Below, in pieces: positions 476 to 54,219 of a stretch of DNA of 64,000 nt; within the stretch, counting starts at the first letter, position 1; each line of letters opens with the position of its first letter. A program made the position numbers and the translations under genes. Under the pieces are notes generated by a model, which saw only the letters and a program-made list of their open reading frames with translations, was not told the DNA's origin and ran no database searches. This DNA is from Escherichia coli (GTDB taxonomy: Bacteria > Pseudomonadota > Gammaproteobacteria > Enterobacterales > Enterobacteriaceae), in assembly GCF_001677475.2 (NCBI RefSeq), contig NZ_CP015229.1. The stretch is one strand, 5' to 3'.

Positions 476-492
476 CTTAAGGTTAAGTTAAT
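476..492 (+). promoter_or_regulatory. Candidate PmrA (BasR) box in the arnB promoter: CTTAAG-N5-GTTAAT direct repeat
   Basis: cttaaggttaagttaat lies about 80-95 bp upstream of the arnB start; it matches the PmrA half-site direct-repeat pattern (YTTAAK-N5-YTTAAK) known for the arn/pbgP promoter. Position and orientation inferred. Confidence 0.5.
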
Positions 493-572
493 ATTCTATC
501 CTTAAAATTTCGCTCCAAATGGCAAAATATACACAACACTCTTTATAGAAAATATAAGTGGACAGGTATTCA

Positions 573-1730
573 ATGGCGGAAGGAAAAGCAATGTCAGAAT
601 TTTTGCCTTTTTCGCGACCAGCAATGGGCGTGGAGGAACTCGCTGCAGTTAAAGAGGTTCTCGAATCCGGTTGGATCACAACCGGTCCGAAGAATCAGGC
701 GCTTGAACAAGCCTTTTGCCAGTTGACGGGAAATCAGCATGCCATCGCGGTCAGTTCAGCCACCGCCGGAATGCATATCACGCTAATGGCGTTGGAAATT
801 GGCAAGAGCGATGAAGTGATTACGCCTTCCCTGACCTGGGTTTCAACCCTCAATATGATTTCCTTGTTGGGTGCAACGCCGGTAATGGTGGATGTCGACC
901 GCGATACGCTGATGGTCACGCCTGAAGCTATCGAGTCAGCCATTACGCCACGCACTAAAGCCATCATTCCGGTGCATTATGCCGGTGCGCCAGCAGATAT
1001 TGACGCCATTCGCGCCATTGGCGAACGTTACGGCATCGCAGTTATCGAAGATGCAGCCCATGCCGTCGGTACGTATTACAAAGGGCGACATATTGGCGCA
1101 AAAGGTACCGCTATTTTTTCGTTTCACGCCATCAAAAATATTACCTGTGCGGAAGGTGGCCTGATTGTTACTGATAATGAAAATCTTGCCCGCCAGCTAC
1201 GGATGCTGAAATTTCACGGTCTGGGTGTCGATGCCTATGACAGACAAACCTGGGGCCGTGCACCGCAGGCTGAAGTCTTAACGCCGGGCTATAAGTACAA
1301 TCTGACCGATATTAACGCCGCGATTGCCCTGACACAGTTAGTCAAATTAGAGCACCTCAACACCCGTCGGCGCGAAATTGCCCTGCAATACCAGCAAGCA
1401 CTGGCAGCTCTCCCCTTTCAGCCATTAAGCCTTCCCGCCTGGCCGCACGTTCACGCCTGGCATCTGTTTATTATTCGTGTCGATGAACAACGTTGTGGTA
1501 TCAGTCGCGATGCGTTGATGGAAGCGTTAAAAGAAAGAGGCATTGGTACCGGGTTACATTTCCGCGCCGCTCACACACAAAAATATTATCGCGAGCGTTG
1601 TCCCACGCTGTCGTTACCGAATACCGAATGGAATAGCGAACGCATCTGTTCGTTGCCGCTGTTCCCGGATATGACTACCGCCGATGCCGACCGCGTCATC
1701 ACAGCCCTTCAGCAACTCGCAGGACAATAA
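573..1730 (+). CDS. arnB: UDP-4-amino-4-deoxy-L-arabinose--oxoglutarate aminotransferase ArnB
   Basis: Track ORF 558..1730; protein [34 protein letters not shown]... matches ArnB. Start set to ATG 573 (385 aa); ATG 591 (MSEF...) has a better Shine-Dalgarno and is an alternative. Confidence 0.92.
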
Positions 1731-2701
<971 letters not shown>

Positions 2702-2702
<1 letters not shown>

Positions 2703-4684
2703 TGAAAACCGTCGTTTTTGCCTACCACGATATGGGATGCCTCGGTATTGAAGCCCTGCTGTCTGCCGGTTACGAAATTAGCGCCATTTTTACCCATACC
2801 GATAATCCCGGTGAAAAAGCCTTTTATGGTTCGGTGGCTCGTCTGGCGGCGGAAAGAGGCATTCCGGTTTATGCGCCGGATAACGTTAATCACCCGCTGT
2901 GGGTGGAACGTATTGCCCAACTCTCACCAGAGGTGATTTTCTCTTTTTATTATCGCCATCTTATTTGCGACGAGATTTTGCAGCTCGCTCCCGCAGGTGC
3001 ATTTAATCTGCATGGTTCGCTGTTACCAAAATATCGTGGTCGCGCGCCGCTGAACTGGGTGCTGGTGAACGGTGAAACGGAAACTGGCGTTACATTGCAC
3101 CGAATGGTGAAACGTGCCGATGCCGGGGCCATTGTGGCGCAACTGCGCATTGCCATTGCGCCAGACGATATCGCTATTACGCTGCATCATAAATTGTGCC
3201 ATGCCGCGCGCCAGCTACTGGAACAGACATTACCCGCCATTAAACACGGTAATATTCTGGAAATCGCCCAGCGCGAAAACGAAGCCACCTGTTTTGGTCG
3301 CAGAACGCCGGATGACAGTTTCCTCGAATGGCATAAGCCGGCATCTGTACTGCACAACATGGTGCGTGCCGTTGCCGATCCGTGGCCGGGTGCCTTCAGC
3401 TATGTTGGCAATCAGAAATTCACCGTCTGGTCGTCGCGTGTTCATCCTCATACCAGCAAAGCACAGCCGGGGAGCGTGATTTCTGTAGCGCCACTGCTGA
3501 TTGCCTGTGGCGATGGCGCGCTGGAAATCGTCACCGGACAGGCGGGCGACGGCATTACTATGCAGGGCTCGCAATTAGCGCAGACGCTGGGCCTGGTGCA
3601 AGGTTCACGCTTGAATAGCCAGCCTGTCTGCACCGCCCGACGCCGTACCCGGGTACTCATCCTCGGGGTGAATGGCTTTATTGGCAACCATCTGACAGAA
3701 CGCCTGCTGCGCGAAGATCATTATGAAGTTTACGGTCTGGATATCGGCAGCGATGCGATAAGCCGTTTTCTGAATCATCCGCATTTTCACTTTGTCGAAG
3801 GCGATATCAGTATTCATTCCGAATGGATTGAGTATCACGTCAAAAAATGTGATGTCGTCTTGCCGCTGGTGGCGATAGCCACGCCGATTGAATATACCCG
3901 CAACCCACTGCGCGTATTTGAACTCGATTTTGAAGAGAATCTGCGCATTATCCGCTACTGCGTGAAGTACCGTAAGCGAATCATCTTCCCATCAACTTCA
4001 GAAGTTTATGGGATGTGTAGCGATAAATACTTCGATGAGGACCATTCTAATTTAATCGTCGGCCCGGTGAATAAACCACGCTGGATTTATTCGGTGTCAA
4101 AACAATTACTTGATCGGGTTATCTGGGCCTATGGCGAAAAAGAGGGTTTACAGTTCACCCTCTTCCGCCCGTTTAACTGGATGGGACCACGACTGGATAA
4201 CCTTAATGCGGCACGAATCGGCAGCTCCCGCGCTATTACGCAACTCATTCTCAATCTGGTAGAAGGTTCACCGATTAAGCTGATTGATGGCGGAAAACAA
4301 AAACGCTGCTTTACTGATATTCGCGATGGTATCGAGGCGTTATACCGCATTATCGAAAATGCGGGAAATCGCTGCGACGGCGAAATTATCAACATTGGCA
4401 ATCCTGATAACGAAGCGAGCATTGAGGAACTGGGCGAGATGCTGCTGGCGAGCTTCGAAAAACATCCGCTGCGCCATCACTTCCCACCGTTTGCGGGCTT
4501 TCGCGTTGTCGAAAGTAGCAGCTACTACGGCAAAGGATATCAGGACGTAGAGCATCGTAAACCGAGCATCCGCAATGCCCGCCGCTGCCTGGACTGGGAA
4601 CCCCAAATTGATATGCAGGAAACCATCGACGAAACGCTGGATTTCTTCCTGCGCACCGTTGATCTTACGGATAAACCATCATGA
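2702..4684 (+). CDS. arnA: Bifunctional UDP-glucuronate decarboxylase / UDP-Ara4N formyltransferase ArnA
   Basis: 660-aa ORF with an N-terminal formyltransferase region ([10 protein letters not shown]) and a C-terminal NAD-dependent dehydrogenase region ([12 protein letters not shown]); start overlaps the arnC stop. Confidence 0.95.
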
Positions 4685-5571
4685 CCAAAGTAGGCTTACG
4701 CATTGATGTCGATACCTTTCGTGGCACCCGTGAAGGCGTGCCGCGTCTGCTGGAAATCTTGAGTAAGCATAATATTCAGGCCAGCATTTTTTTCAGCGTC
4801 GGCCCGGACAATATGGGCCGCCATCTCTGGCGACTGGTGAAGCCACAGTTTTTGTGGAAGATGCTGCGCTCAAACGCGGCATCGCTTTATGGCTGGGATA
4901 TTTTACTGGCAGGTACGGCCTGGCCGGGTAAAGAGATTGGTCATGCCAATGCCGATATCATTCGTGAAGCAGCTAAACATCACGAAGTCGGCCTGCACGC
5001 CTGGGATCACCATGCCTGGCAAGCCCATAGCGGTAACTGGGATCGGCAAACATTGGTCGACGATATTGCACGCGGCCTTCGCACTCTGGAAGAGATTATC
5101 GGTCAACCGGTAACCTGTTCTGCCGCTGCGGGCTGGCGTGCCGACCAGCAGGTGATCGAAGCAAAAGAAGCGTTCCATTTGCGCTACAACAGCGATTGTC
5201 GTGGGGCCATGCCGTTTCGGCCACTGCTCGAATCAGGAAACCCTGGCACTGCGCAAATTCCGGTGACCTTACCCACCTGGGATGAAGTGATTGGTCGGGA
5301 TGTGAAAGCAGAAGATTTTAACGGTTGGTTACTCAACCGCATCCTGCGAGATAAAGGCACGCCGGTTTATACCATTCATGCCGAAGTTGAAGGCTGCGCT
5401 TATCAGCATAATTTTGTGGATCTCCTGAAACGCGCAGCCCAGGAAGGCGTGACATTTTGCCCTTTAAGCGAACTGTTATCAGGGACGTTGCCGCTCGGAC
5501 AAGTTGTTCGCGGAAATATTGCCGGACGTGAAGGCTGGCTGGGTTGCCAACAAATTGCGGGTAGTCGCTGA
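4681..5571 (+). CDS. arnD: 4-deoxy-4-formamido-L-arabinose-phosphoundecaprenol deformylase ArnD
   Basis: 296-aa ORF overlapping the arnA stop by 4 nt; matches ArnD in length and operon position. Confidence 0.93.
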
Positions 5572-7223
5572 TGAAATCGGTACGTTACCTTATCGGCCTC
5601 TTCGCGTTTATTGCCTGCTATTACCTGTTACCGATCAGCACGCGTCTGCTATGGCAACCCGATGAAACGCGTTATGCGGAAATCAGTCGGGAAATGCTGG
5701 CATCCGGCGACTGGATTGTGCCCCATCTGTTAGGGCTACGTTATTTTGAAAAACCCATTGCCGGATACTGGATTAACAGCATTGGGCAATGGCTATTTGG
5801 CGCGAATAACTTTGGTGTGCGGGCAGGCGTTATCTTTGCGACCCTGTTAACTGCCGCGCTGGTGACCTGGTTTACTCTGCGCTTATGGCGCGATAAACGT
5901 CTGGCTCTACTCGCCGCAGTGATTTATCTCTCATTGTTTATTGTCTATGCCATCGGCACTTATGCCGTGCTCGATCCGTTTATTGCATTCTGGCTGGTGG
6001 CGGGAATGTGCAGCTTCTGGCTGGCAATGCAGGCACAGACGTGGAAAGGCAAAAGCGCGGGATTTTTACTGCTGGGAATCACTTGCGGCATGGGGGTGAT
6101 GACCAAAGGTTTTCTCGCCCTTGCCGTGCCGGTATTAAGCGTGCTTCCATGGGTTGCATCGCAAAAACGCTGGAAAGATCTCTTTATTTACGGCTGGCTG
6201 GCGGTTATCAGTTGCGTACTGACGGTTCTCCCCTGGGGACTGGCGATAGCGCAGCGGGAGCCTGACTTCTGGCACTATTTTTTCTGGGTTGAGCATATTC
6301 AACGCTTTGCAATGGATGATGCTCAGCATAGAGCTCCGTTCTGGTACTACTTGCCGGTCATCATTGCCGGTAGCCTGCCGTGGCTGGGATTACTCCCCGG
6401 AGCACTGTACGCAGGCTGGAAAAACCGCAAGCATTCCGCAACCGTCTATTTGTTGAGCTGGACGATAATGCCGCTGCTGTTTTTCTCCGTCGCTAAAGGC
6501 AAATTGCCCACCTATATTCTTTCCTGCTTTGCACCTCTGGCAATGCTGATGGCGCATTACGCTTTGCTGGCAGCAAAAAATAATCCTCTGGCGCTGCGGA
6601 TTAATGGCTGGATTAACATCGCTTTTGGTGTCACTGGCATTATTGCCACATTTGTGGTCTCCCCATGGGGACCAATGAACACGCCAGTGTGGCAAACCTT
6701 CGAGAGCTATAAAGTCTTTTGTGCCTGGTCGATTTTTTCGCTATGGGCATTTTTCGGCTGGTACACCTTAACAAACGTCGAAAAGACCTGGTCTTTTGCC
6801 GCGCTTTGCCCGCTGGGGCTGGCGTTGCTGGTAGGATTTTCAATTCCTGACAGAGTCATGGAAGGAAAACATCCGCAATTTTTTGTCGAGATGACACAAG
6901 AATCACTTCAGCCAAGCCGCTATATTCTTACTGATAGCGTCGGTGTTGCCGCAGGTCTGGCATGGAGCCTGCAACGCGATGACATCATCATGTATCGCCA
7001 GACAGGTGAGTTGAAATACGGCCTTAATTATCCGGATGCGAAAGGGAGATTTGTCAGCGGTGATGAGTTCGCAAACTGGCTTAATCAACATCGTCAGGAG
7101 GGGATTATTACACTCGTGCTTTCGGTTGACCGCGATGAAGATATCAACAGTCTCGCCATTCCGCCCGCAGATGCCATCGATCGTCAGGAGCGTCTGGTGC
7201 TGATTCAGTATCGGCCCAAATGA
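5571..7223 (+). CDS. arnT: Undecaprenyl phosphate-alpha-4-amino-4-deoxy-L-arabinose arabinosyl transferase ArnT
   Basis: 550-aa polytopic membrane protein; start overlaps the arnD stop; matches ArnT. Confidence 0.95.
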
Positions 7224-7555
7224 TCTGGCTAACATTAGTCTTTGCCAGCTTGCTTAGCGTTGCCGGGCAGTTGTGTCAGAAACAAGCAACCTGCTTTGTG
7301 GCGATAAACAAACGGCGCAAACATATCGTGCTGTGGCTGGGACTGGCGCTGGCTTGTCTTGGTCTTGCCATGGTGCTCTGGCTGCTGGTCTTGCAGAACG
7401 TACCGGTAGGCATTGCCTACCCGATGTTAAGTCTGAATTTTGTCTGGGTGACGCTGGCTGCAGTAAAACTGTGGCACGAGCCGGTATCACTGCGTCACTG
7501 GTGTGGGGTGGCATTCATTATTGGCGGCATTGTGATCCTCGGGAGTACGGTGTAA
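7220..7555 (+). CDS. arnE: Undecaprenyl-phosphate-Ara4N flippase subunit ArnE
   Basis: 111-aa small membrane protein overlapping the arnT stop by 4 nt. Confidence 0.9.
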
Positions 7556-7941
7556 TGGGCCTGATGTGGGGATTATTCAGCGTCATTATTGCCTCAGCTG
7601 CGCAATTAAGCCTGGGTTATGCGGCGAGTCATCTACCGCCGATGACGCACTTATGGGATTTTATCGCGGCGCTGTTAGCTTTTGGCCTGGATGCCCGGAT
7701 ACTGTTACTCGGGCTGCTGGGTTATCTGCTTTCCGTTTTTTGTTGGTATAAAACGCTACATAAACTTGCGTTAAGCAAAGCCTATGCCTTGCTCAGTATG
7801 AGCTATGTGCTGGTATGGATTGCATCAATGATACTTCCCGGCTGGGAAGGAACTTTTTCGCTGAAGGCACTACTGGGAGTTGCTTGTATTATGAGCGGGT
7901 TGATGTTGATTTTCCTGCCCACGACAAAACAACGTTACTGA
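7555..7941 (+). CDS. arnF: Undecaprenyl-phosphate-Ara4N flippase subunit ArnF
   Basis: The 3' part of track ORF 7273..7941 matches ArnF ([29 protein letters not shown]..., 128 aa); the ATG at 7555 shares a base with the arnE TAA. The upstream 5' extension of the track ORF is an out-of-frame artefact overlapping arnE. Confidence 0.88.
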
Positions 7942-8201
7942 GTTTTCCCTGCCGCTGTACACTGCCGTTCCCACTCATCGGGGCTATAACTGCTTGCCGA
8001 GAGGACTTTAACCGTATGCAGCTTTTCACGATTAATACAGTAAAGGGCATTCTGCAAAGGCGAGAGTAAATCCCCCACTTTCACGGCGAAGTCACTCTTC
8101 ACTTCGGCGATCATTTTTATCGCGCCGCCAGCATCGCAGAGCATAAGTACATGTCTGTTATCTTGTTTATTGCAGCACGATTTTTTGACCAGCCATTCCA
8201 T
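7935..8201 (-). CDS. pmrD: Signal transduction connector protein PmrD
   Basis: Track ORF 7935..8231 (98 aa); the known 88-aa PmrD begins [34 protein letters not shown]..., so the start is trimmed to 8201. Its 3' end overlaps the arnF 3' end convergently. Confidence 0.88.
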
Positions 8202-8310
8202 TGCATTATCCTGTTTGCTAAGAGTTTTCACATCAATTTACAGATTAACAGATAAACTCTTTATCAACGGCAATGGAATGGCAGAAATGAGAAGTGAAAC
8301 GGATGGTTAA

Positions 8311-9666
8311 TTATTGCTGGCGTTGCACCCACTCTTTTAGCGCCTGACGTGAAATTTTAATACCACCGTTTTTCAGTTCAGGTGGAAGCGTCAGCCAACG
8401 CACCGGTTGTTGAAAACGGGCCAGCTTATCTTTCACCCATTCGCCAAGATCAACGGTTTGCTGGTCATACTCCACCACCGCTACCGGTCGATGACCAAAC
8501 TCCTTGTCGGCAACGGGAACGATAAACACCTGCAAAACCGCAGGATGTGCAGCAATAACGCGCTCGACTTCTTCTGGCTGAATGCCTTCGCCACCACTGA
8601 AGAACAGATTGTCTAAACGTCCGACAATGGTCAGCTTGCCATTATGCATCTCACCGCGATCGCGCGTGGCGTACCAGCCTTCGTCATTAACCAGTGGAAC
8701 CAGTTGCCCGTTACGCCAGTAACCTTCTGCCATGCTGGCAGCCCGCAGCCACACTTCGTCGTTTACGATTTTCACTTCCCGACCCGGCAGCGGCGAACCG
8801 ACGTCTGCCAGACCGTCGGCTTCTTTCGCACACACCGTGGAGGCAAACTCGGTCAGACCATAGCCGCAAAAGCAACGAATCCCCTGCTCGCGCGCCTGTT
8901 CCGTCAACTCGACCGGAATTGCCGCACCGCCAAGTAACACCGCTTTCAGGGAAACGGAACTGCGGTTAACCAGCAAACGCCAGAGTTGTGTTGGCACCAG
9001 TGAAGCGTGAGTACAGCCTGCCAGCATTTGCTCCAATGGCTGTTTATCACGTACCGTCATCCGCGCACCAGCGTATAACCAGCGCCACATAATTCCCTGA
9101 CCGGAGACGTGAAACAGCGGTAAAGAGAGCAACCAGTCATCGTGCTCGCCAAACGGTATCAGCGATAACACACCTTGCGCACTGGCAAGATGGGCCTGAT
9201 AAGTATGAACAGCGGCTTTCGGCAAACCGGTAGAGCCGGAGGTCAACGTCATTGAGCACAGACGCGTCGGCTGCCACGCAGCGGCATGTGCGCCTTCAAC
9301 CAGCTGAATGTGCAGCGACGTTAACGCCGGAAACGTGTTTTCCCCATCCGGCACCAGCGCAAATTGCAGCGTCAGATTGGGCAGCAATTCTTCAAGCAAC
9401 GGTTGCGGCAGCTGAGGGTTCACGGGCAACACCCGCGCCCCGCATTGCAGTAACGCCAGCCAGGCGAGCAGCGTTTGCGGCGTATTCCACGCCCGCAACA
9501 TCACGCCGCTGCCCTCAACCACACCCTGCGCCGCAAAGCCGGAGGCTAATTCATCGACGCGAGCACAAAGCTCGCGCCAGTTGAGTTGCTCGTCATTAAG
9601 ACGTAAGGCGATGGCTTCTCCCCGCACTTGCCGCCAGTGACGCCACGGCCAGTCAGAGAAGATCAT
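8311..9666 (-). CDS. menE: o-succinylbenzoate--CoA ligase MenE
   Basis: 451-aa ORF with an adenylate-forming enzyme motif (TSGSTGLPK); last gene of the men cluster. Confidence 0.93.
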
Positions 9667-39529: not shown

Positions 39530-40129
39530 ATGAAACAGAGCCATTTTTTTGCCCATCTCTCCCGCCTGAAACTCATTAACCGCTGGCCGCTAATGCGCAA
39601 CGTGCGGACGGAAAATGTGTCCGAACACAGTTTGCAAGTAGCGATGGTCGCCCATGCGCTGGCAGCTATCAAAAATCGTAAATTTGGCGGTAATGTCAAC
39701 GCCGAACGTATCGCTTTACTGGCGATGTACCACGATGCTTCAGAAGTGCTCACCGGCGATCTCCCTACTCCGGTGAAATACTTCAATTCGCAAATCGCTC
39801 AGGAATACAAGGCTATTGAAAAAATCGCTCAGCAAAAACTGGTCGATATGGTTCCGGAAGAGCTGCGGGATATCTTTGCGCCGTTAATTGACGAGCATGC
39901 ATATAGCGATGAAGAAAAATCGCTGGTGAAACAGGCAGATGCACTGTGTGCATATCTGAAATGTCTGGAAGAACTCGCGGCCGGAAATAATGAATTCTTG
40001 CTGGCAAAAACGCGACTGGAAGCGACGCTTGAAGCGCGTCGCAGCCAGGAGATGGACTACTTCATGGAAGTATTTGTTCCCAGCTTCCATCTTTCGCTCG
40101 ATGAGATTAGCCAGGATTCACCGCTGTAA
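39530..40129 (+). CDS. yfbR: HD-domain 5'-deoxynucleotidase YfbR
   Basis: 199-aa [48 protein letters not shown]... matching YfbR. Confidence 0.93.
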
Positions 40130-40141
40130 GCAGCTGGAGTC

Positions 40142-40181
40142 TGCGTCGCATCAGGCAATAAGCGCCGGATGCGACATCAGG
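40142..40181. repeat. REP (repetitive extragenic palindromic) element between yfbR and yfbS
   Basis: tgcgtcgcatcaggcaataagcgccggatgcgacatcaggc shows the gcatcagg/ccggatgcg motifs of E. coli REP units in inverted arrangement. Confidence 0.7.
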
Positions 40182-40187
40182 CTCTTG

Positions 40188-42020
40188 TCAAAACGGAAAC
40201 AGCATCGGGATCATCACCACACAAACTGCCATCACGATAATGGTGAACGGTACCCCCAACTTCACAAAGTCACTGAAGCTGTAATTTCCCGGACCTAAAA
40301 CCAGTGTATTAACAGGTGAAGAAACCGGTGTCATAAAGGCGGCAGATGCTGCCATCGCCACGACCATCGCGAATGGATAAGGCGACACACCCATCGTTTT
40401 GGCAGCAGCCAGCGCAATCGGAGCCATCAACACCGCCGTCGCGGTATTAGAGATAAATAGCCCAATAACCGCCGACAAGACAAACAAACACCCCAGCATC
40501 ATATGTGGCCCATAACCGCCGCCAATGTCCATCAGCCCTTTCACCGCCAGCGCGACACCTCCCGTTTTCTGTAATGCCACAGCAAACGGCATCATCCCAA
40601 CGATCAAAATAATGCTCGGCCAGTGAATGGATTTATAGGCGCTTTCAGCATCTATACAGCGGAATTTCCCCATCAGCAGGCAGGCGATGATAGCGGCAAC
40701 AGGATTAGGAATTTCATCTGTCAGCATTAACGCCACCATTAGCACCAGACAGAAAATGGCATGGGGTGCCTGGCTGTGCGCGGGCGATGCTTCACTCACC
40801 TCTTCCGGTAAGTTCAGCGCTACGAAGTCGCGGCCCTGTTTGGCCAGCATACCGATCAGTTTCCAGTTACCAACAACCAGGATGATATCGCCCAGCAGCA
40901 GAGGCTCATCCGCCAGCGAACCTTCCAGCGCCACGCCATTGCGCTTTAGCCCCACCACATTCAGTCCGTAGCGGGTACGAAAACCAATTTCGCGCACCGA
41001 TTTACCAATAAGTTCTGACTCAGGAATTAATGAAATCTCTGCCATGCCCACATCAAGGGCCTGGTCAGAAAAATACTCGCCGCGCAGTACCATCGGCTCC
41101 AGCAATTGCTCACTACAAAATTGCCGGAGATCGACATCAGCCGCAGACATATCAATAAGCAAAACGTCACGCGCGCGAAATTCAGAAACCCCATTAACGT
41201 TCACGATAACGCGACGAAAACGCCGCCAGCGTTCAACACCGATGACGTTAGCGCCATAACGCTCACGTAATTTGAGATCGTCCAGCCGTTGACCAATCAT
41301 TGGCGATCCGGGGCGAATAGCCAGACGTCGCGCACGCCCGGTCAGTCGATATTCACGGATAAGATCGCGAAAGGTTCGACGCGTCCAGCCTTCGCGCTGC
41401 GGGGTCTGGGTATCCCCTTTCAGCATGAAACGCATCACTAACATATACAAAATACCCAGCACCAGCACGACCAGGCCAATAGGTGTTACGCTAAAGAAAC
41501 TGAAGCCGTGATAGCCTTCACGCAGCAATTCACTGTTGACTACCAGGTTCGGCGGCGTCGCCACCAGCGTCATCATGCCGCTAATCAGCCCGGCAAAACT
41601 TAACGGCATCATCAGACGCGACGGCGAAGTTTGCATACGCATGGCAACGCTTAACACCACGGGAATAAAGATAGCGACAACGCCGGTTGAACTCATAAAC
41701 GCGCCAAGCCCCGCAACGGTCAGCATCAACAAAACCAACATTTTGATTTCACTGTTGCCCGCCACTTTGACCAGCCATGTTCCCATTACGGTGGCAACAC
41801 CGGTACGGACCAAACCATCGCCAATAATAAACAAGGCGGCAATCAGGACAACGTTAGGATCAGAAAAGCCGGAAAATACTTCGGGGACCGTCAGCGTTCC
41901 GCTTAATGCAAACGCGACAATAACAAACAAAGCGACCGCATCCATACGCACTCTGCCCGTCGCAAACAAGACGATGGCAACGGCCAGTAATGAAAGAACC
42001 CAAATCAATTCACCGTTCAC
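40188..42020 (-). CDS. yfbS: Putative anion/dicarboxylate-family transporter YfbS (two TrkA-C domains)
   Basis: 610-aa ORF with hydrophobic N- and C-terminal halves and a central soluble region; matches YfbS in length. Confidence 0.88.
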
Positions 42021-47748: not shown

Positions 47749-49269
47749 ATGTCCGCAATCACTGAATCCAAACCAACCAGAAGATGGGCAATGCCCGATA
47801 CGTTGGTGATTATCTTTTTTGTTGCTATTTTAACCAGCCTTGCCACCTGGGTAGTTCCGGTGGGGATGTTTGACAGTCAGGAAGTGCAGTATCAGGTTGA
47901 TGGTCAAACAAAAACTCGCAAAGTCGTAGATCCACACTCTTTTCGCATTCTGACTAACGAAGCAGGCGAACCTGAGTATCACCGCGTACAGCTGTTTACG
48001 ACGGGCGATGAACGCCCGGGCCTGATGAACTTCCCGTTTGAAGGGTTAACCTCAGGATCGAAATACGGGACAGCCGTTGGCATCATCATGTTTATGCTGG
48101 TGATTGGCGGCGCGTTTGGCATTGTGATGCGTACAGGAACCATTGATAACGGTATCCTGGCGCTTATTCGCCATACCCGCGGGAATGAAATTCTCTTTAT
48201 TCCTGCGCTGTTTATTCTGTTTTCACTTGGCGGCGCGGTATTTGGTATGGGAGAAGAGGCCGTCGCCTTTGCCATTATCATCGCACCGCTAATGGTCCGG
48301 CTGGGCTATGACAGTATTACCACCGTCCTGGTGACTTATATTGCCACGCAAATCGGTTTTGCCAGTTCGTGGATGAACCCGTTTTGTGTGGTTGTTGCTC
48401 AGGGGATTGCCGGCGTTCCGGTGCTTTCTGGCTCCGGGTTGCGCATCGTGGTGTGGGTTATCGCCACTCTGATTGGCTTGATCTTTACCATGGTGTACGC
48501 CTCACGAGTGAAAAAGAATCCTCTTCTGTCACGCGTGCATGAGTCCGACCGCTTCTTTCGTGAAAAGCAGGCGGATGTTGAACAACGTCCGTTTACCTTT
48601 GGTGACTGGCTGGTATTGATTGTCCTGACCGCCGTAATGGTCTGGGTGATTTGGGGCGTGATCGTTAATGCCTGGTTTATTCCAGAAATTGCCAGCCAGT
48701 TCTTCACCATGGGTCTGGTGATTGGCATCATCGGCGTTGTTTTCCGCCTTAACGGCATGACGGTTAATACCATGGCTTCATCCTTTACCGAAGGGGCGCG
48801 AATGATGATCGCCCCTGCCCTGCTGGTGGGTTTCGCCAAAGGGATTTTGCTGCTGGTCGGTAATGGTGAAGCGGGTGAGGCCAGCGTGTTAAATACCATC
48901 CTCAACAGCATTGCCAATGCCATTAGCGGTCTGGACAATGCGGTCGCGGCCTGGTTTATGTTGCTCTTCCAGGCAGTATTTAATTTCTTCGTGACGTCCG
49001 GTTCTGGTCAGGCGGCGTTAACCATGCCGTTACTGGCACCGCTTGGCGATCTGGTCGGTGTTAACCGTCAGGTTACCGTGCTGGCGTTCCAGTTTGGTGA
49101 TGGCTTCAGCCACATCATTTACCCAACCTCAGCTTCGTTAATGGCGACGCTCGGTGTGTGCCGGGTGGACTTCCGTAACTGGCTGAAGGTGGGCGCGACC
49201 CTGCTTGGACTGCTGTTTATTATGTCCAGCGTCGTAGTGATCGGCGCTCAGTTGATGGGCTACCACTAA
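47749..49269 (+). CDS. yfcC: Putative C4-dicarboxylate-anaerobic-carrier-like inner membrane transporter YfcC
   Basis: Track ORF 513 aa; the known 506-aa protein begins MSAITESKPTRRWAMPDTLVIIFFVAIL... at 47749. Confidence 0.9.
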   Translation: MSAITESKPTRRWAMPDTLVIIFFVAILTSLATWVVPVGMFDSQEVQYQVDGQTKTRKVVDPHSFRILTNEAGEPEYHRVQLFTTGDERPGLMNFPFEGLTSGSKYGTAVGIIMFMLVIGGAFGIVMRTGTIDNGILALIRHTRGNEILFIPALFILFSLGGAVFGMGEEAVAFAIIIAPLMVRLGYDSITTVLVTYIATQIGFASSWMNPFCVVVAQGIAGVPVLSGSGLRIVVWVIATLIGLIFTMVYASRVKKNPLLSRVHESDRFFREKQADVEQRPFTFGDWLVLIVLTAVMVWVIWGVIVNAWFIPEIASQFFTMGLVIGIIGVVFRLNGMTVNTMASSFTEGARMMIAPALLVGFAKGILLLVGNGEAGEASVLNTILNSIANAISGLDNAVAAWFMLLFQAVFNFFVTSGSGQAALTMPLLAPLGDLVGVNRQVTVLAFQFGDGFSHIIYPTSASLMATLGVCRVDFRNWLKVGATLLGLLFIMSSVVVIGAQLMGYH

Positions 49270-49277
49270 AAATGTTA

Positions 49278-49303
49278 AGAGCCGCAATTGCGGCTCTTTT
49301 TTC
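49278..49303. terminator. Bidirectional hairpin terminator between convergent yfcC and yfcD
   Basis: agagccgcaattgcggctct followed by TTTTTT; the T-tract overlaps the yfcD stop codon. Confidence 0.7.
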
Positions 49304-52375: not shown

Positions 52376-53269
52376 ATGAACATAGTGATCACCGGAGGGA
52401 CGGGATTAATTGGTCGCCATTTGATTCCACGTTTGCTGGAGCTGGGCCATCAAATCACGGTAGTGACGCGTAACCCGCAGAAAGCCAGTTCCGTTCTCGG
52501 CCCTCGGGTGACACTATGGCAAGGGCTTGCCGATCAAAGCAACCTCAACGGCGTTGATGCGGTAATCCACCTGGTCGGAGAACCGATTGCTGATAAACGC
52601 TGGACTCACGAGCAAAAAGAGCGTCTCTGCCAAAGCCGCTGGAATATCACGCAAAAACTGGTCGATTTGATTAATGCCAGCGACACGCCACCGTCGGTAC
52701 TCATTTCCGGCTCAGCAACGGGCTATTATGGCGACTTAGGTGAAGTGGTGGTTACCGAAGAGGAACCGCCGCATAACGAATTTACCCATAAACTCTGCGC
52801 CCGCTGGGAAGAAATTGCCTGCCGGGCGCAAAGTGACAAAACGCGAGTGTGCCTGCTGCGTACCGGCGTAGTGCTGGCACCGGATGGCGGTATTCTCCGT
52901 AAAATGCTGCCGCCGTTTCGTCTTGGCCTGGGCGGGCCGATTGGTTCCGGTCGGCAGTATCTGGCCTGGATTCATATCGATGATATGGTCAACGGCATTC
53001 TCTGGCTGCTCGATAACGAGCTGCGCGGGCCATTTAATATGGTTTCGCCCTACCCGATACGCAATGAACAATTTGCCCATGCGCTCGGTCATGCGCTGCA
53101 TCGCCCGGCCATTTTGCGCGTCCCCGCAACCGCCATTCGGCTGTTAATGGGCGAATCTTCAGTACTGGTATTAGGTGGACAACGCGCGCTGCCTAAACGG
53201 CTGGAAGAAGCGGGTTTTGCGTTTCGTTGGTACGATTTAGAAGAGGCGCTGGCGGATGTCGTTCGCTGA
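52376..53269 (+). CDS. yfcH: Epimerase-family NAD(P)-binding protein YfcH
   Basis: 297-aa ORF with a Rossmann motif ([12 protein letters not shown]). Confidence 0.92.
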
Positions 53270-53316
53270 TGTGGTTTACTGCAAACATCCGCCAGTTAAC
53301 TCCCGGTGTTACAGGG

Positions 53317-54219
53317 TTAGTGGCTTTGCGCGATAAGATCGTCTGGTGAAAGTCGGGTCACCATCATAACTAACTCTCGGTCTAAACCTCTATCCAGCAT
53401 CTCCTGAGCAATACGCAGGGCTTCTTCGCGTTTGCCCAGAATTAATCCATCATTCCGCCCTTCTTCACGTAATCTGTCAGCAATAGTCATCAGTTTCTCC
53501 TTTTCTTGTGGTGCGCGTTCCGCTATCTCACCAATAAATGCACGGAAACGCTGGGCATCTCCCGTTTGTAATACGTAATTAAACAGGGCTTTTAGCTGTC
53601 TGTCATTAGTGTTTCCTGTAACTAGCAGCGAAACAATTTGGTCGACTAATCCCAACAGATCGCGCTGACGAATATGTTTCTGAATTAGCTCCAACAGCGC
53701 CATTTTGCGGTGTTGCATAATCTCGTCATCCGGCACCACGGTAATATCCACCAGCGGAAAAGCCGATGAATAAATTTTGCGGGCAATCGCAGGCTCGGCA
53801 AATTCATCAAGCCAGCAGAGTGAATATGGATAAGGGCTTCTGCAGCCATGATAAAACAGCATCGGGATCACCAATGGAAGCTCTTTATAGCCCGCATCAA
53901 GATGGTTTTGCATTGCCGCAATGGAATAACGCATCATGCGAAAAGCCATTAATTCTTCCAGCTTGCTTTGGTGCTCTATCACTACATAAATATAACCCGC
54001 TCCCTCCTGCGTTTTCACAGACCACAAGAGGTCGGAATAATATTGCCGCAGGTCTTCATCAATAAAACTGTTTGGTTCCAGTTTAAGCGTCGTTAAATCA
54101 CACAGTTTGCGCAGCGGCGCGGGAAGATGAATATCAATAAAATCCCGCGCGGTGTCTGGATGGCGTAAAAAAGATTTAAATACCGCATCATGCGGCGTGG
54201 AAGTTGTCGATATTGTCAT
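53317..54219 (-). CDS. rpnB: Rpn-family recombination-promoting nuclease (putative transposase_31 / PD-(D/E)XK) RpnB
   Basis: 300-aa [36 protein letters not shown]...; the N-terminal region is typical of the YhgA/Rpn family; position between yfcH and hisP matches yfcI. Exact start uncertain. Confidence 0.82.

Follow-up and report, generated by a model that had tools for sequence, protein, structure and literature searches.

Genes at the arnF-pmrD junction

The window analysed in this work, a stretch of 64,000 nt of Escherichia coli DNA (assembly GCF_001677475.2, contig NZ_CP015229.1), carries the arnBCADTEF genes for lipid A modification and polymyxin resistance on the plus strand and, facing the last of them, pmrD on the minus strand (Table 1). 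ArnF matched the NCBIfam equivalog model NF002816 with 138.8 bits (cut-off 99) and PmrD the model NF011994 with 174.3 bits (cut-off 96); homologues of PmrD carry the Pfam domain PF11183. The flanking neighbours of the two genes were recognized by profile matches as ArnE (210.9 bits against its NCBIfam model) and MenE. Names of the arn genes upstream of arnF were taken from the PGAP annotation of the near-identical strain N3, whose genome is the closest to the window. Adjacent arn genes overlap by 1–4 nt, except arnB and arnC, which are separated by a 3-nt gap; the list of open reading frames gives either 558 or 591 as the start of arnB. Elsewhere in N3, a gene of the ElaD/SseL deubiquitinase family (L017 14349–15571, corresponding to about 17400–18600 of the window) is annotated as a frameshifted pseudogene.

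The box-like site upstream of arnB probably is a PmrA box, judged by its position and by the known arn/pbgP promoter, and is presumed to mark the PmrA-dependent start of transcription toward pmrD.

Table 1. Features of the arnF-pmrD region and other convergent gene pairs of the window (positions are those of the window).
Feature	Position	Strand	Description	Evidence
PmrA-box-like site	476..492	+	CTTAAGGTTAAGTTAAT; upstream of the arnB ORF; YTTAAK-N5-YTTAAK with 1 mismatch	
arnB	558..1730	+	arnBCADTEF gene upstream of arnF	
arnC	1734..2702	+	as above	
arnA	2702..4684	+	as above	
arnD	4681..5571	+	as above	
arnT	5571..7223	+	as above	
arnE	7220..7555	+	as above	
arnF	7555..7941	+	last arnBCADTEF gene, 128 aa, stop TGA 7939-7941	NCBIfam match, sequence, PGAP (4 genomes)
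pmrD	7935..8201	-	88 aa from ATG 8201, stop TAA 7937-7935	NCBIfam match
Common bases TTACTGA	7935..7941	both	7 nt lying in the coding sequences of both arnF and pmrD	
arn read-through RNA, first ~80 nt	7942..8019	+	antisense to the pmrD 3' end; C-rich, unstructured	
pmrD read-through RNA	7745..7856	-	antisense to arnF; two modest hairpins, neither with a proper U-tract	
Hairpins in pmrD read-through RNA	7834-7849 and 7767-7795	-	z -1.8 and -2.3	
Weak terminator-like hairpin	8084..8118	+	CGGCGAAGT...ACTTCGGCG then ATCATTTTT; inside pmrD, antisense strand	
pmrD promoter region	8202..8310	-	from pmrD to the menE stop; 34.9% GC	
nuoN/yfbM	20567-20634		other convergent pair	
yfbS/yfbR	40129-40188		other convergent pair	
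yfcD/yfcC	49269-49302		other convergent pair	
rpnB/yfcH	53269-53317		other convergent pair	

On the plus strand arnF ends with ...CAA CGT TAC TGA, and on the minus strand pmrD ends with ...AAA ACT CAG TAA. The common bases TTACTGA encode Y128 and the stop of ArnF (together with the third base of the codon for R127) as well as Q88 and the stop of PmrD. The original prediction had the two stop codons overlapping by 7 nt. An overlap of this length does exist between the coding sequences, but base 7938 keeps the two stop codons apart. Each stop codon lies past that of the other gene, i.e. the pair is a convergent overlap of coding sequences. In ArnF the family model reaches residue 122 of 128, in PmrD residue 85 of 88, and the common bases therefore code only for non-conserved tails.

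arnF and pmrD are real genes, arranged tail to tail on opposite strands. Gene callers sometimes err on genes as short as pmrD, but an artefact of annotation, in which a wrong stop or frame would feign the overlap, is effectively refuted: both proteins fit their equivalog models nearly end to end, the stop positions are read straight off the sequence, the lengths of 128 and 88 aa match PGAP in four genomes, gene calls on a Salmonella contig made by a method other than PGAP also give an overlap (6 nt), and a longer, GTG-started ORF of 98 aa in the pmrD frame alters the start, not the stop.

Frequency and conservation of the overlap

Overlapping coding sequences were found in four of the 17 convergent pairs present in 164 kb of annotated N3 DNA, a small sample made up of 64 kb matching the window and two unrelated stretches of 50 kb. 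The pairs are arnF/pmrD (7 nt), mpaA/ycjG (26 nt), sapF and an SMI1-family gene (4 nt), and pdeR/ymiD (19 nt). Convergent coding-sequence overlaps are routine as a class, and as a member of this class arnF/pmrD is no more than expected by chance.

The locus was present in 5419 of 5426 complete E. coli genomes. PGAP annotated the same 7-nt overlap in four of four E. coli genomes (MC4100, N3, EC-129 and CFT073), all with an identical TTACTGA; Escherichia albertii also has a 7-nt overlap, which reads CTACTGA. The overlap measures 6 nt (TCATGA) in Salmonella (S. enterica, subsp. diarizonae), and in Citrobacter amalonaticus the two genes are separated by a gap of 3–9 nt. Pseudocitrobacter possesses a distant pmrD homologue which does not adjoin arn and is co-directional with its neighbours. 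Comparison across genera revealed indels at the junction and protein tails that vary in sequence and length (85–88 aa for PmrD, 125–128 aa for ArnF), so that there is little protein constraint on the common bases. As far as these alignments go, it is the missing spacer that is conserved across genera, not the exact overlap. Such a conserved tight junction would fit neutral compaction without selection for a terminator, and would equally fit selection for transcript overlap.

Several lineages retain pmrD while arn is damaged or lost. In E. coli SCPM-O-B-8794 (L007 3250–3330), 22 codons of arnF are left, adjoining AT-rich DNA, and a 10-nt deletion has led to a 23-nt overlap. In Escherichia sp. 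MOD1-EC7003 (L006 3260–3540), arnF contains a premature TAG and its 5' part does not align. In Intestinirhabdus alba (L014 3000–4114), menE and pmrD are followed directly by an ais-like gene, and the arn operon is missing.

The arnE-arnF-pmrD-menE segment (window 7400–8400) was matched with at least 99% identity in only 2 of the 5419 E. coli genomes; most had 95–99% identity, and 1007 had 90–95%. For a core chromosomal kilobase this is a high degree of polymorphism, in keeping with the unusual variability of pmrD in E. coli.

Transcription termination at the junction

It had been predicted that transcription of either unit must read antisense into the other. This is indeed forced by the geometry of the genes: no mRNA can do without its own stop codon, and the arnF and pmrD transcripts therefore necessarily overlap by at least 7 nt. 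Since both stops lie inside the overlap, functional mRNAs cannot have their 3' ends before it on both strands.

Terminators near the junction were sought with a scanning tool, a permissive scan of our own, folding in comparison with shuffled sequence, and a search for inverted repeats. The prediction that there is no space for a terminator agreed with the outcome: a gap is missing, and neither scanning nor folding revealed a canonical intrinsic terminator at the junction. In particular, no bidirectional intrinsic terminator, i.e. a GC-rich hairpin with an A-run and a T-run, lies between the two stops. At each of the remaining four convergent junctions of the window, a gap of 32–66 nt holds a strong hairpin, with folding energies of -20 to -35 kcal/mol as opposed to -0.6 kcal/mol at the arnF/pmrD junction. 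The yfcD/yfcC pair, for example, has the same tail-to-tail geometry as arnF/pmrD but represents the type with both gap and hairpin, neither of which is found between arnF and pmrD. Within the yfcD/yfcC gap, a textbook bidirectional terminator is located at 49277–49298, with AAGAGCCGCAATTGCGGCTCTT between the A- and T-runs; the yfbS/yfbR gap holds a long hairpin, rich in GC and similar to a REP element.

With neither terminator nor gap at the junction, each transcript must end inside the opposite gene. RNA of positions 7925–7990, which extends past the arnF stop, folded more weakly than its shuffled counterparts (z = +1.52). In the first read-through segment of arn, C amounts to 32.1% and G to 23.1%, and C exceeds G past both stops with ratios of 1.4 and 1.9 (1.92 at 7914–7837 on the pmrD side). 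This arn segment may serve as a loading region for Rho. The excess of C over G is compatible with Rho-dependent termination, but RNA antisense to genes commonly shows such a bias. In the region 7000–9000, no Rfam family reached its gathering score. The best candidate, pemK at 7825–7894 on the plus strand, stayed below this threshold (21.5 bits, with 34.8 required; E = 0.48); it overlaps the 7834–7849 hairpin inside arnF and most likely arose by chance. Neither pmrD nor arnF has an entry in the Term-seq tables of Adams 2021, and a literature search on 3' ends of these genes, Rho, RNase III and antisense RNA yielded nothing specific except the ExcludonFinder study described below.

The junction is probably an ordinary, ancestral and compact meeting of two convergent units with diffuse termination and a small regulatory effect. 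The units are the PmrA-activated arnBCADTEF operon and the single gene pmrD, activated by PhoP; the non-conserved C-terminal tails of ArnF and PmrD run together by 7 nt with no terminator hairpin in between. Each complete arn mRNA therefore holds some antisense to pmrD, and each complete pmrD mRNA some antisense to arnF. Past the stops the RNA is untranslated, C-rich and little structured, and transcription would most likely end diffusely within the opposite gene, by Rho and/or at weak hairpins and at no defined site. The overlap offers a physical route for polymerase collision or formation of an RNA duplex, and by default its effect would be expected to be small and secondary to control of the pmrD promoter by PhoP and, in some lineages, also by PmrA. 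Several points speak against this reading. Rho termination is deduced here from base composition, the retention of a tight junction across about three genera could mean selection for the overlap, and a second convergent overlap in the regulon, that of pmrR and basS, hints at a pattern that is not accidental.

Another reading is that intrinsic terminators embedded in the coding sequences insulate both units, which would confine the overlap to a defined length of about 100–360 nt, short of the pmrD promoter. Transcripts of arn would then stop at 8084–8118, approximately 170 nt into pmrD, and those of pmrD inside arnF at 7834–7849 or 7767–7795. The hairpins concerned were detected by three methods, and the authors of ExcludonFinder report overlapping terminators predicted by TransTermHP at 146 of 165 E. 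coli convergent excludons (PMC12288877). A hint at a role of the 3' flank comes from cloning experiments in which BL21 fragments arnF-pmrD-menE-menC and arnT-arnE-arnF-pmrD conferred colistin resistance on TOP10, whereas the bare pmrD ORF, driven by a strong promoter, failed to do so, a difference left unexplained by the authors (PMC8004244). However, the stems are short (6–10 bp), the U-tracts are displaced or poor, and the energies lie just 1.7–2.3 standard deviations below those of shuffled sequence (z of -1.3 to -2.3 for the embedded candidates overall). Six terminator-like sites were counted in the region compared with 2.6 ± 1.7 expected, a modest excess, and all are inside coding sequence. 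The hairpin at 8084..8118 (-10.9 kcal/mol, z -1.74 relative to shuffled sequence) might stop polymerases reading through from arn but is probably incidental: its T-run (8113–8118) simply lies opposite the invariant KMIAE codons of PmrD, and its stem (8084–8109) is disrupted with no compensating change in E. albertii and in SCPM-O-B-8794 and missing from Salmonella. Likewise, the 7834–7849 hairpin is not kept in Salmonella, and compensatory changes were found for neither. As terminators the embedded hairpins were rejected on account of their weakness, their location in coding sequence and the lack of conservation of the two compared across species, and insulation of the two units by such elements is rather unlikely.

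Antisense overlap and possible feedback on pmrD

Both the overlap of arnF and pmrD and the idea that their transcripts overlap are already known, the former being annotated by PGAP and the latter having been catalogued in 2025. ExcludonFinder (Sanmartin et al., NAR 2025, PMC12288877) lists arnF-pmrD among 165 convergent excludons of strain MG1655. At least half of the 58 MG1655 transcriptomes surveyed showed the pair, which was singled out as an excludon of two genes of the same pathway (PMC12288877). It thus is itself a member of the MG1655 set, with a short intergenic distance (negative here) and with both genes in one pathway. The criterion applied by ExcludonFinder is read coverage; pairs with overlapping coding sequences would pass it nearly automatically, and the listing probably says little about the extent of read-through. 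Evidence for the pair in that study is RNA-seq coverage, as distinct from reciprocal expression, RNase III dependence or a mutant, and capture of double-stranded RNA by p19 was uninformative for convergent pairs (PMC12288877).

Interference between the arn operon and pmrD, as put forward in the original prediction, is a plausible hypothesis. In its full form it would amount to a functional excludon, or a feedback in cis: when PmrA is active, polymerases coming from arn would traverse pmrD, and PmrD would fall, by collision with or displacement of the polymerases transcribing pmrD and/or by pairing of arn and pmrD RNA followed by RNase III cleavage. This would constitute a second negative feedback loop, and the sole PmrA-dependent one where the pmrD promoter is without a PmrA box. 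The missing terminator between the two genes, the listing of this same-pathway pair as an excludon and the retention of a tight junction in Escherichia, Salmonella and Citrobacter argue for such a scheme, as does the parallel overlap of pmrR and basS in the PmrA regulon. Against it stand the coverage-based nature of the excludon call and the uninformative p19 validation. In addition, excludons are defined by mutually exclusive expression, whereas arnF and pmrD are co-induced in the connector pathway, in which PhoP induces pmrD and PmrD then promotes expression of arn. Untranslated antisense RNA is, moreover, a likely target of Rho, which would limit the reach of polymerases coming from arn. 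A search of the literature found no study that tests whether the PmrA regulon and pmrD interfere transcriptionally at this pair.

The upstream region of pmrD bears on the same question. In the window, K-12 and CFT073, the 120 nt preceding pmrD contain no PmrA-box-like site at up to two mismatches, and at the level of pattern matching the pmrD of the window has no promoter PmrA box of the Salmonella type, which lies ahead of the PhoP box. A PmrA-dependent effect on pmrD, if any, could therefore act here only via convergent transcription of arn. The promoter region in the window contains only a weak PhoP-box-like match (three mismatches). Box-like sites are present at about -102 to -118 of pmrD in Salmonella, Citrobacter, E. 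albertii and E. coli EC-129. Within E. coli the region next to the menE stop (window 8270–8321) is dimorphic, with a box-less and a box-like haplotype (compared at L003 2303–2422, L008 and L016 2880–3000). The type of EC-129 and E. albertii has ATTAAGAAATCATTAGT at the position occupied in Salmonella by ATTAATGTTAGGTTAAT. At an identity of at least 95%, approximately 4285 of 5426 genomes carry the box-less haplotype and approximately 1095 of 5426 the box-like one (about 80% versus 20%).

In Salmonella, PmrA represses pmrD, which follows the same logic as the original prediction, i.e. the PmrA regulon damps its activator PmrD (Kato, Latifi and Groisman 2003, as cited in PMC2565834 and PMC3140997). 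The two citing papers present negative feedback of PmrA on pmrD as useful and attribute the repression to PmrA acting at the pmrD promoter. The mechanism described there differs from convergent transcription, and the Salmonella gene has the upstream box-like site that pmrD of the window lacks. Mutation of the PmrA site reportedly abolished the repression of pmrD in the work of Kato in 2003. Klebsiella is without both a PmrA box at pmrD and PmrA repression of pmrD (PMC2565834), and the feedback loop between PmrA and pmrD has been described as absent from E. coli (PMC3140997). The promoter-based explanation in Salmonella and the described absence of the loop in E. coli both weigh against interference at the junction. 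Counting in its favour are the usefulness of such feedback in Salmonella and the missing box-like site in the window, K-12 and CFT073, as opposed to the lineages that have one. Overall, functional interference of this kind seems unlikely. A bolder extension, in which read-through from arn would be a brake in cis that replaces promoter repression by PmrA in box-less lineages, so that the two haplotypes would be alternative ways of closing the loop and pmrR-basS a second example, is speculative and improbable.

Significance of the junction

The PmrA/PmrB system contains a further tail-to-tail overlap, between the PmrA-activated pmrR and basS (pmrB). It is reported to span 25 bp and is also in the ExcludonFinder list (PMC12288877); it differs from arnF/pmrD in that it involves other genes, one of them a very small ORF, and its locus lies outside the window. 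Taken together, this overlap and the cloning result with the BL21 fragments hint weakly at a regulatory role of the junction.

Modification of lipid A and resistance to polymyxin and colistin are governed by PhoPQ and PmrAB, two systems that PmrD connects. An ordinary meeting of two convergent units remains the probable nature of the arnF-pmrD junction; on present evidence, the overlap is an everyday trait of compact bacterial genomes, and its value is that of a cheap hypothesis for specialists. If it were true that read-through from arn damps pmrD, it would represent a hidden feedback step, invisible to promoter reporters placed away from the native locus.
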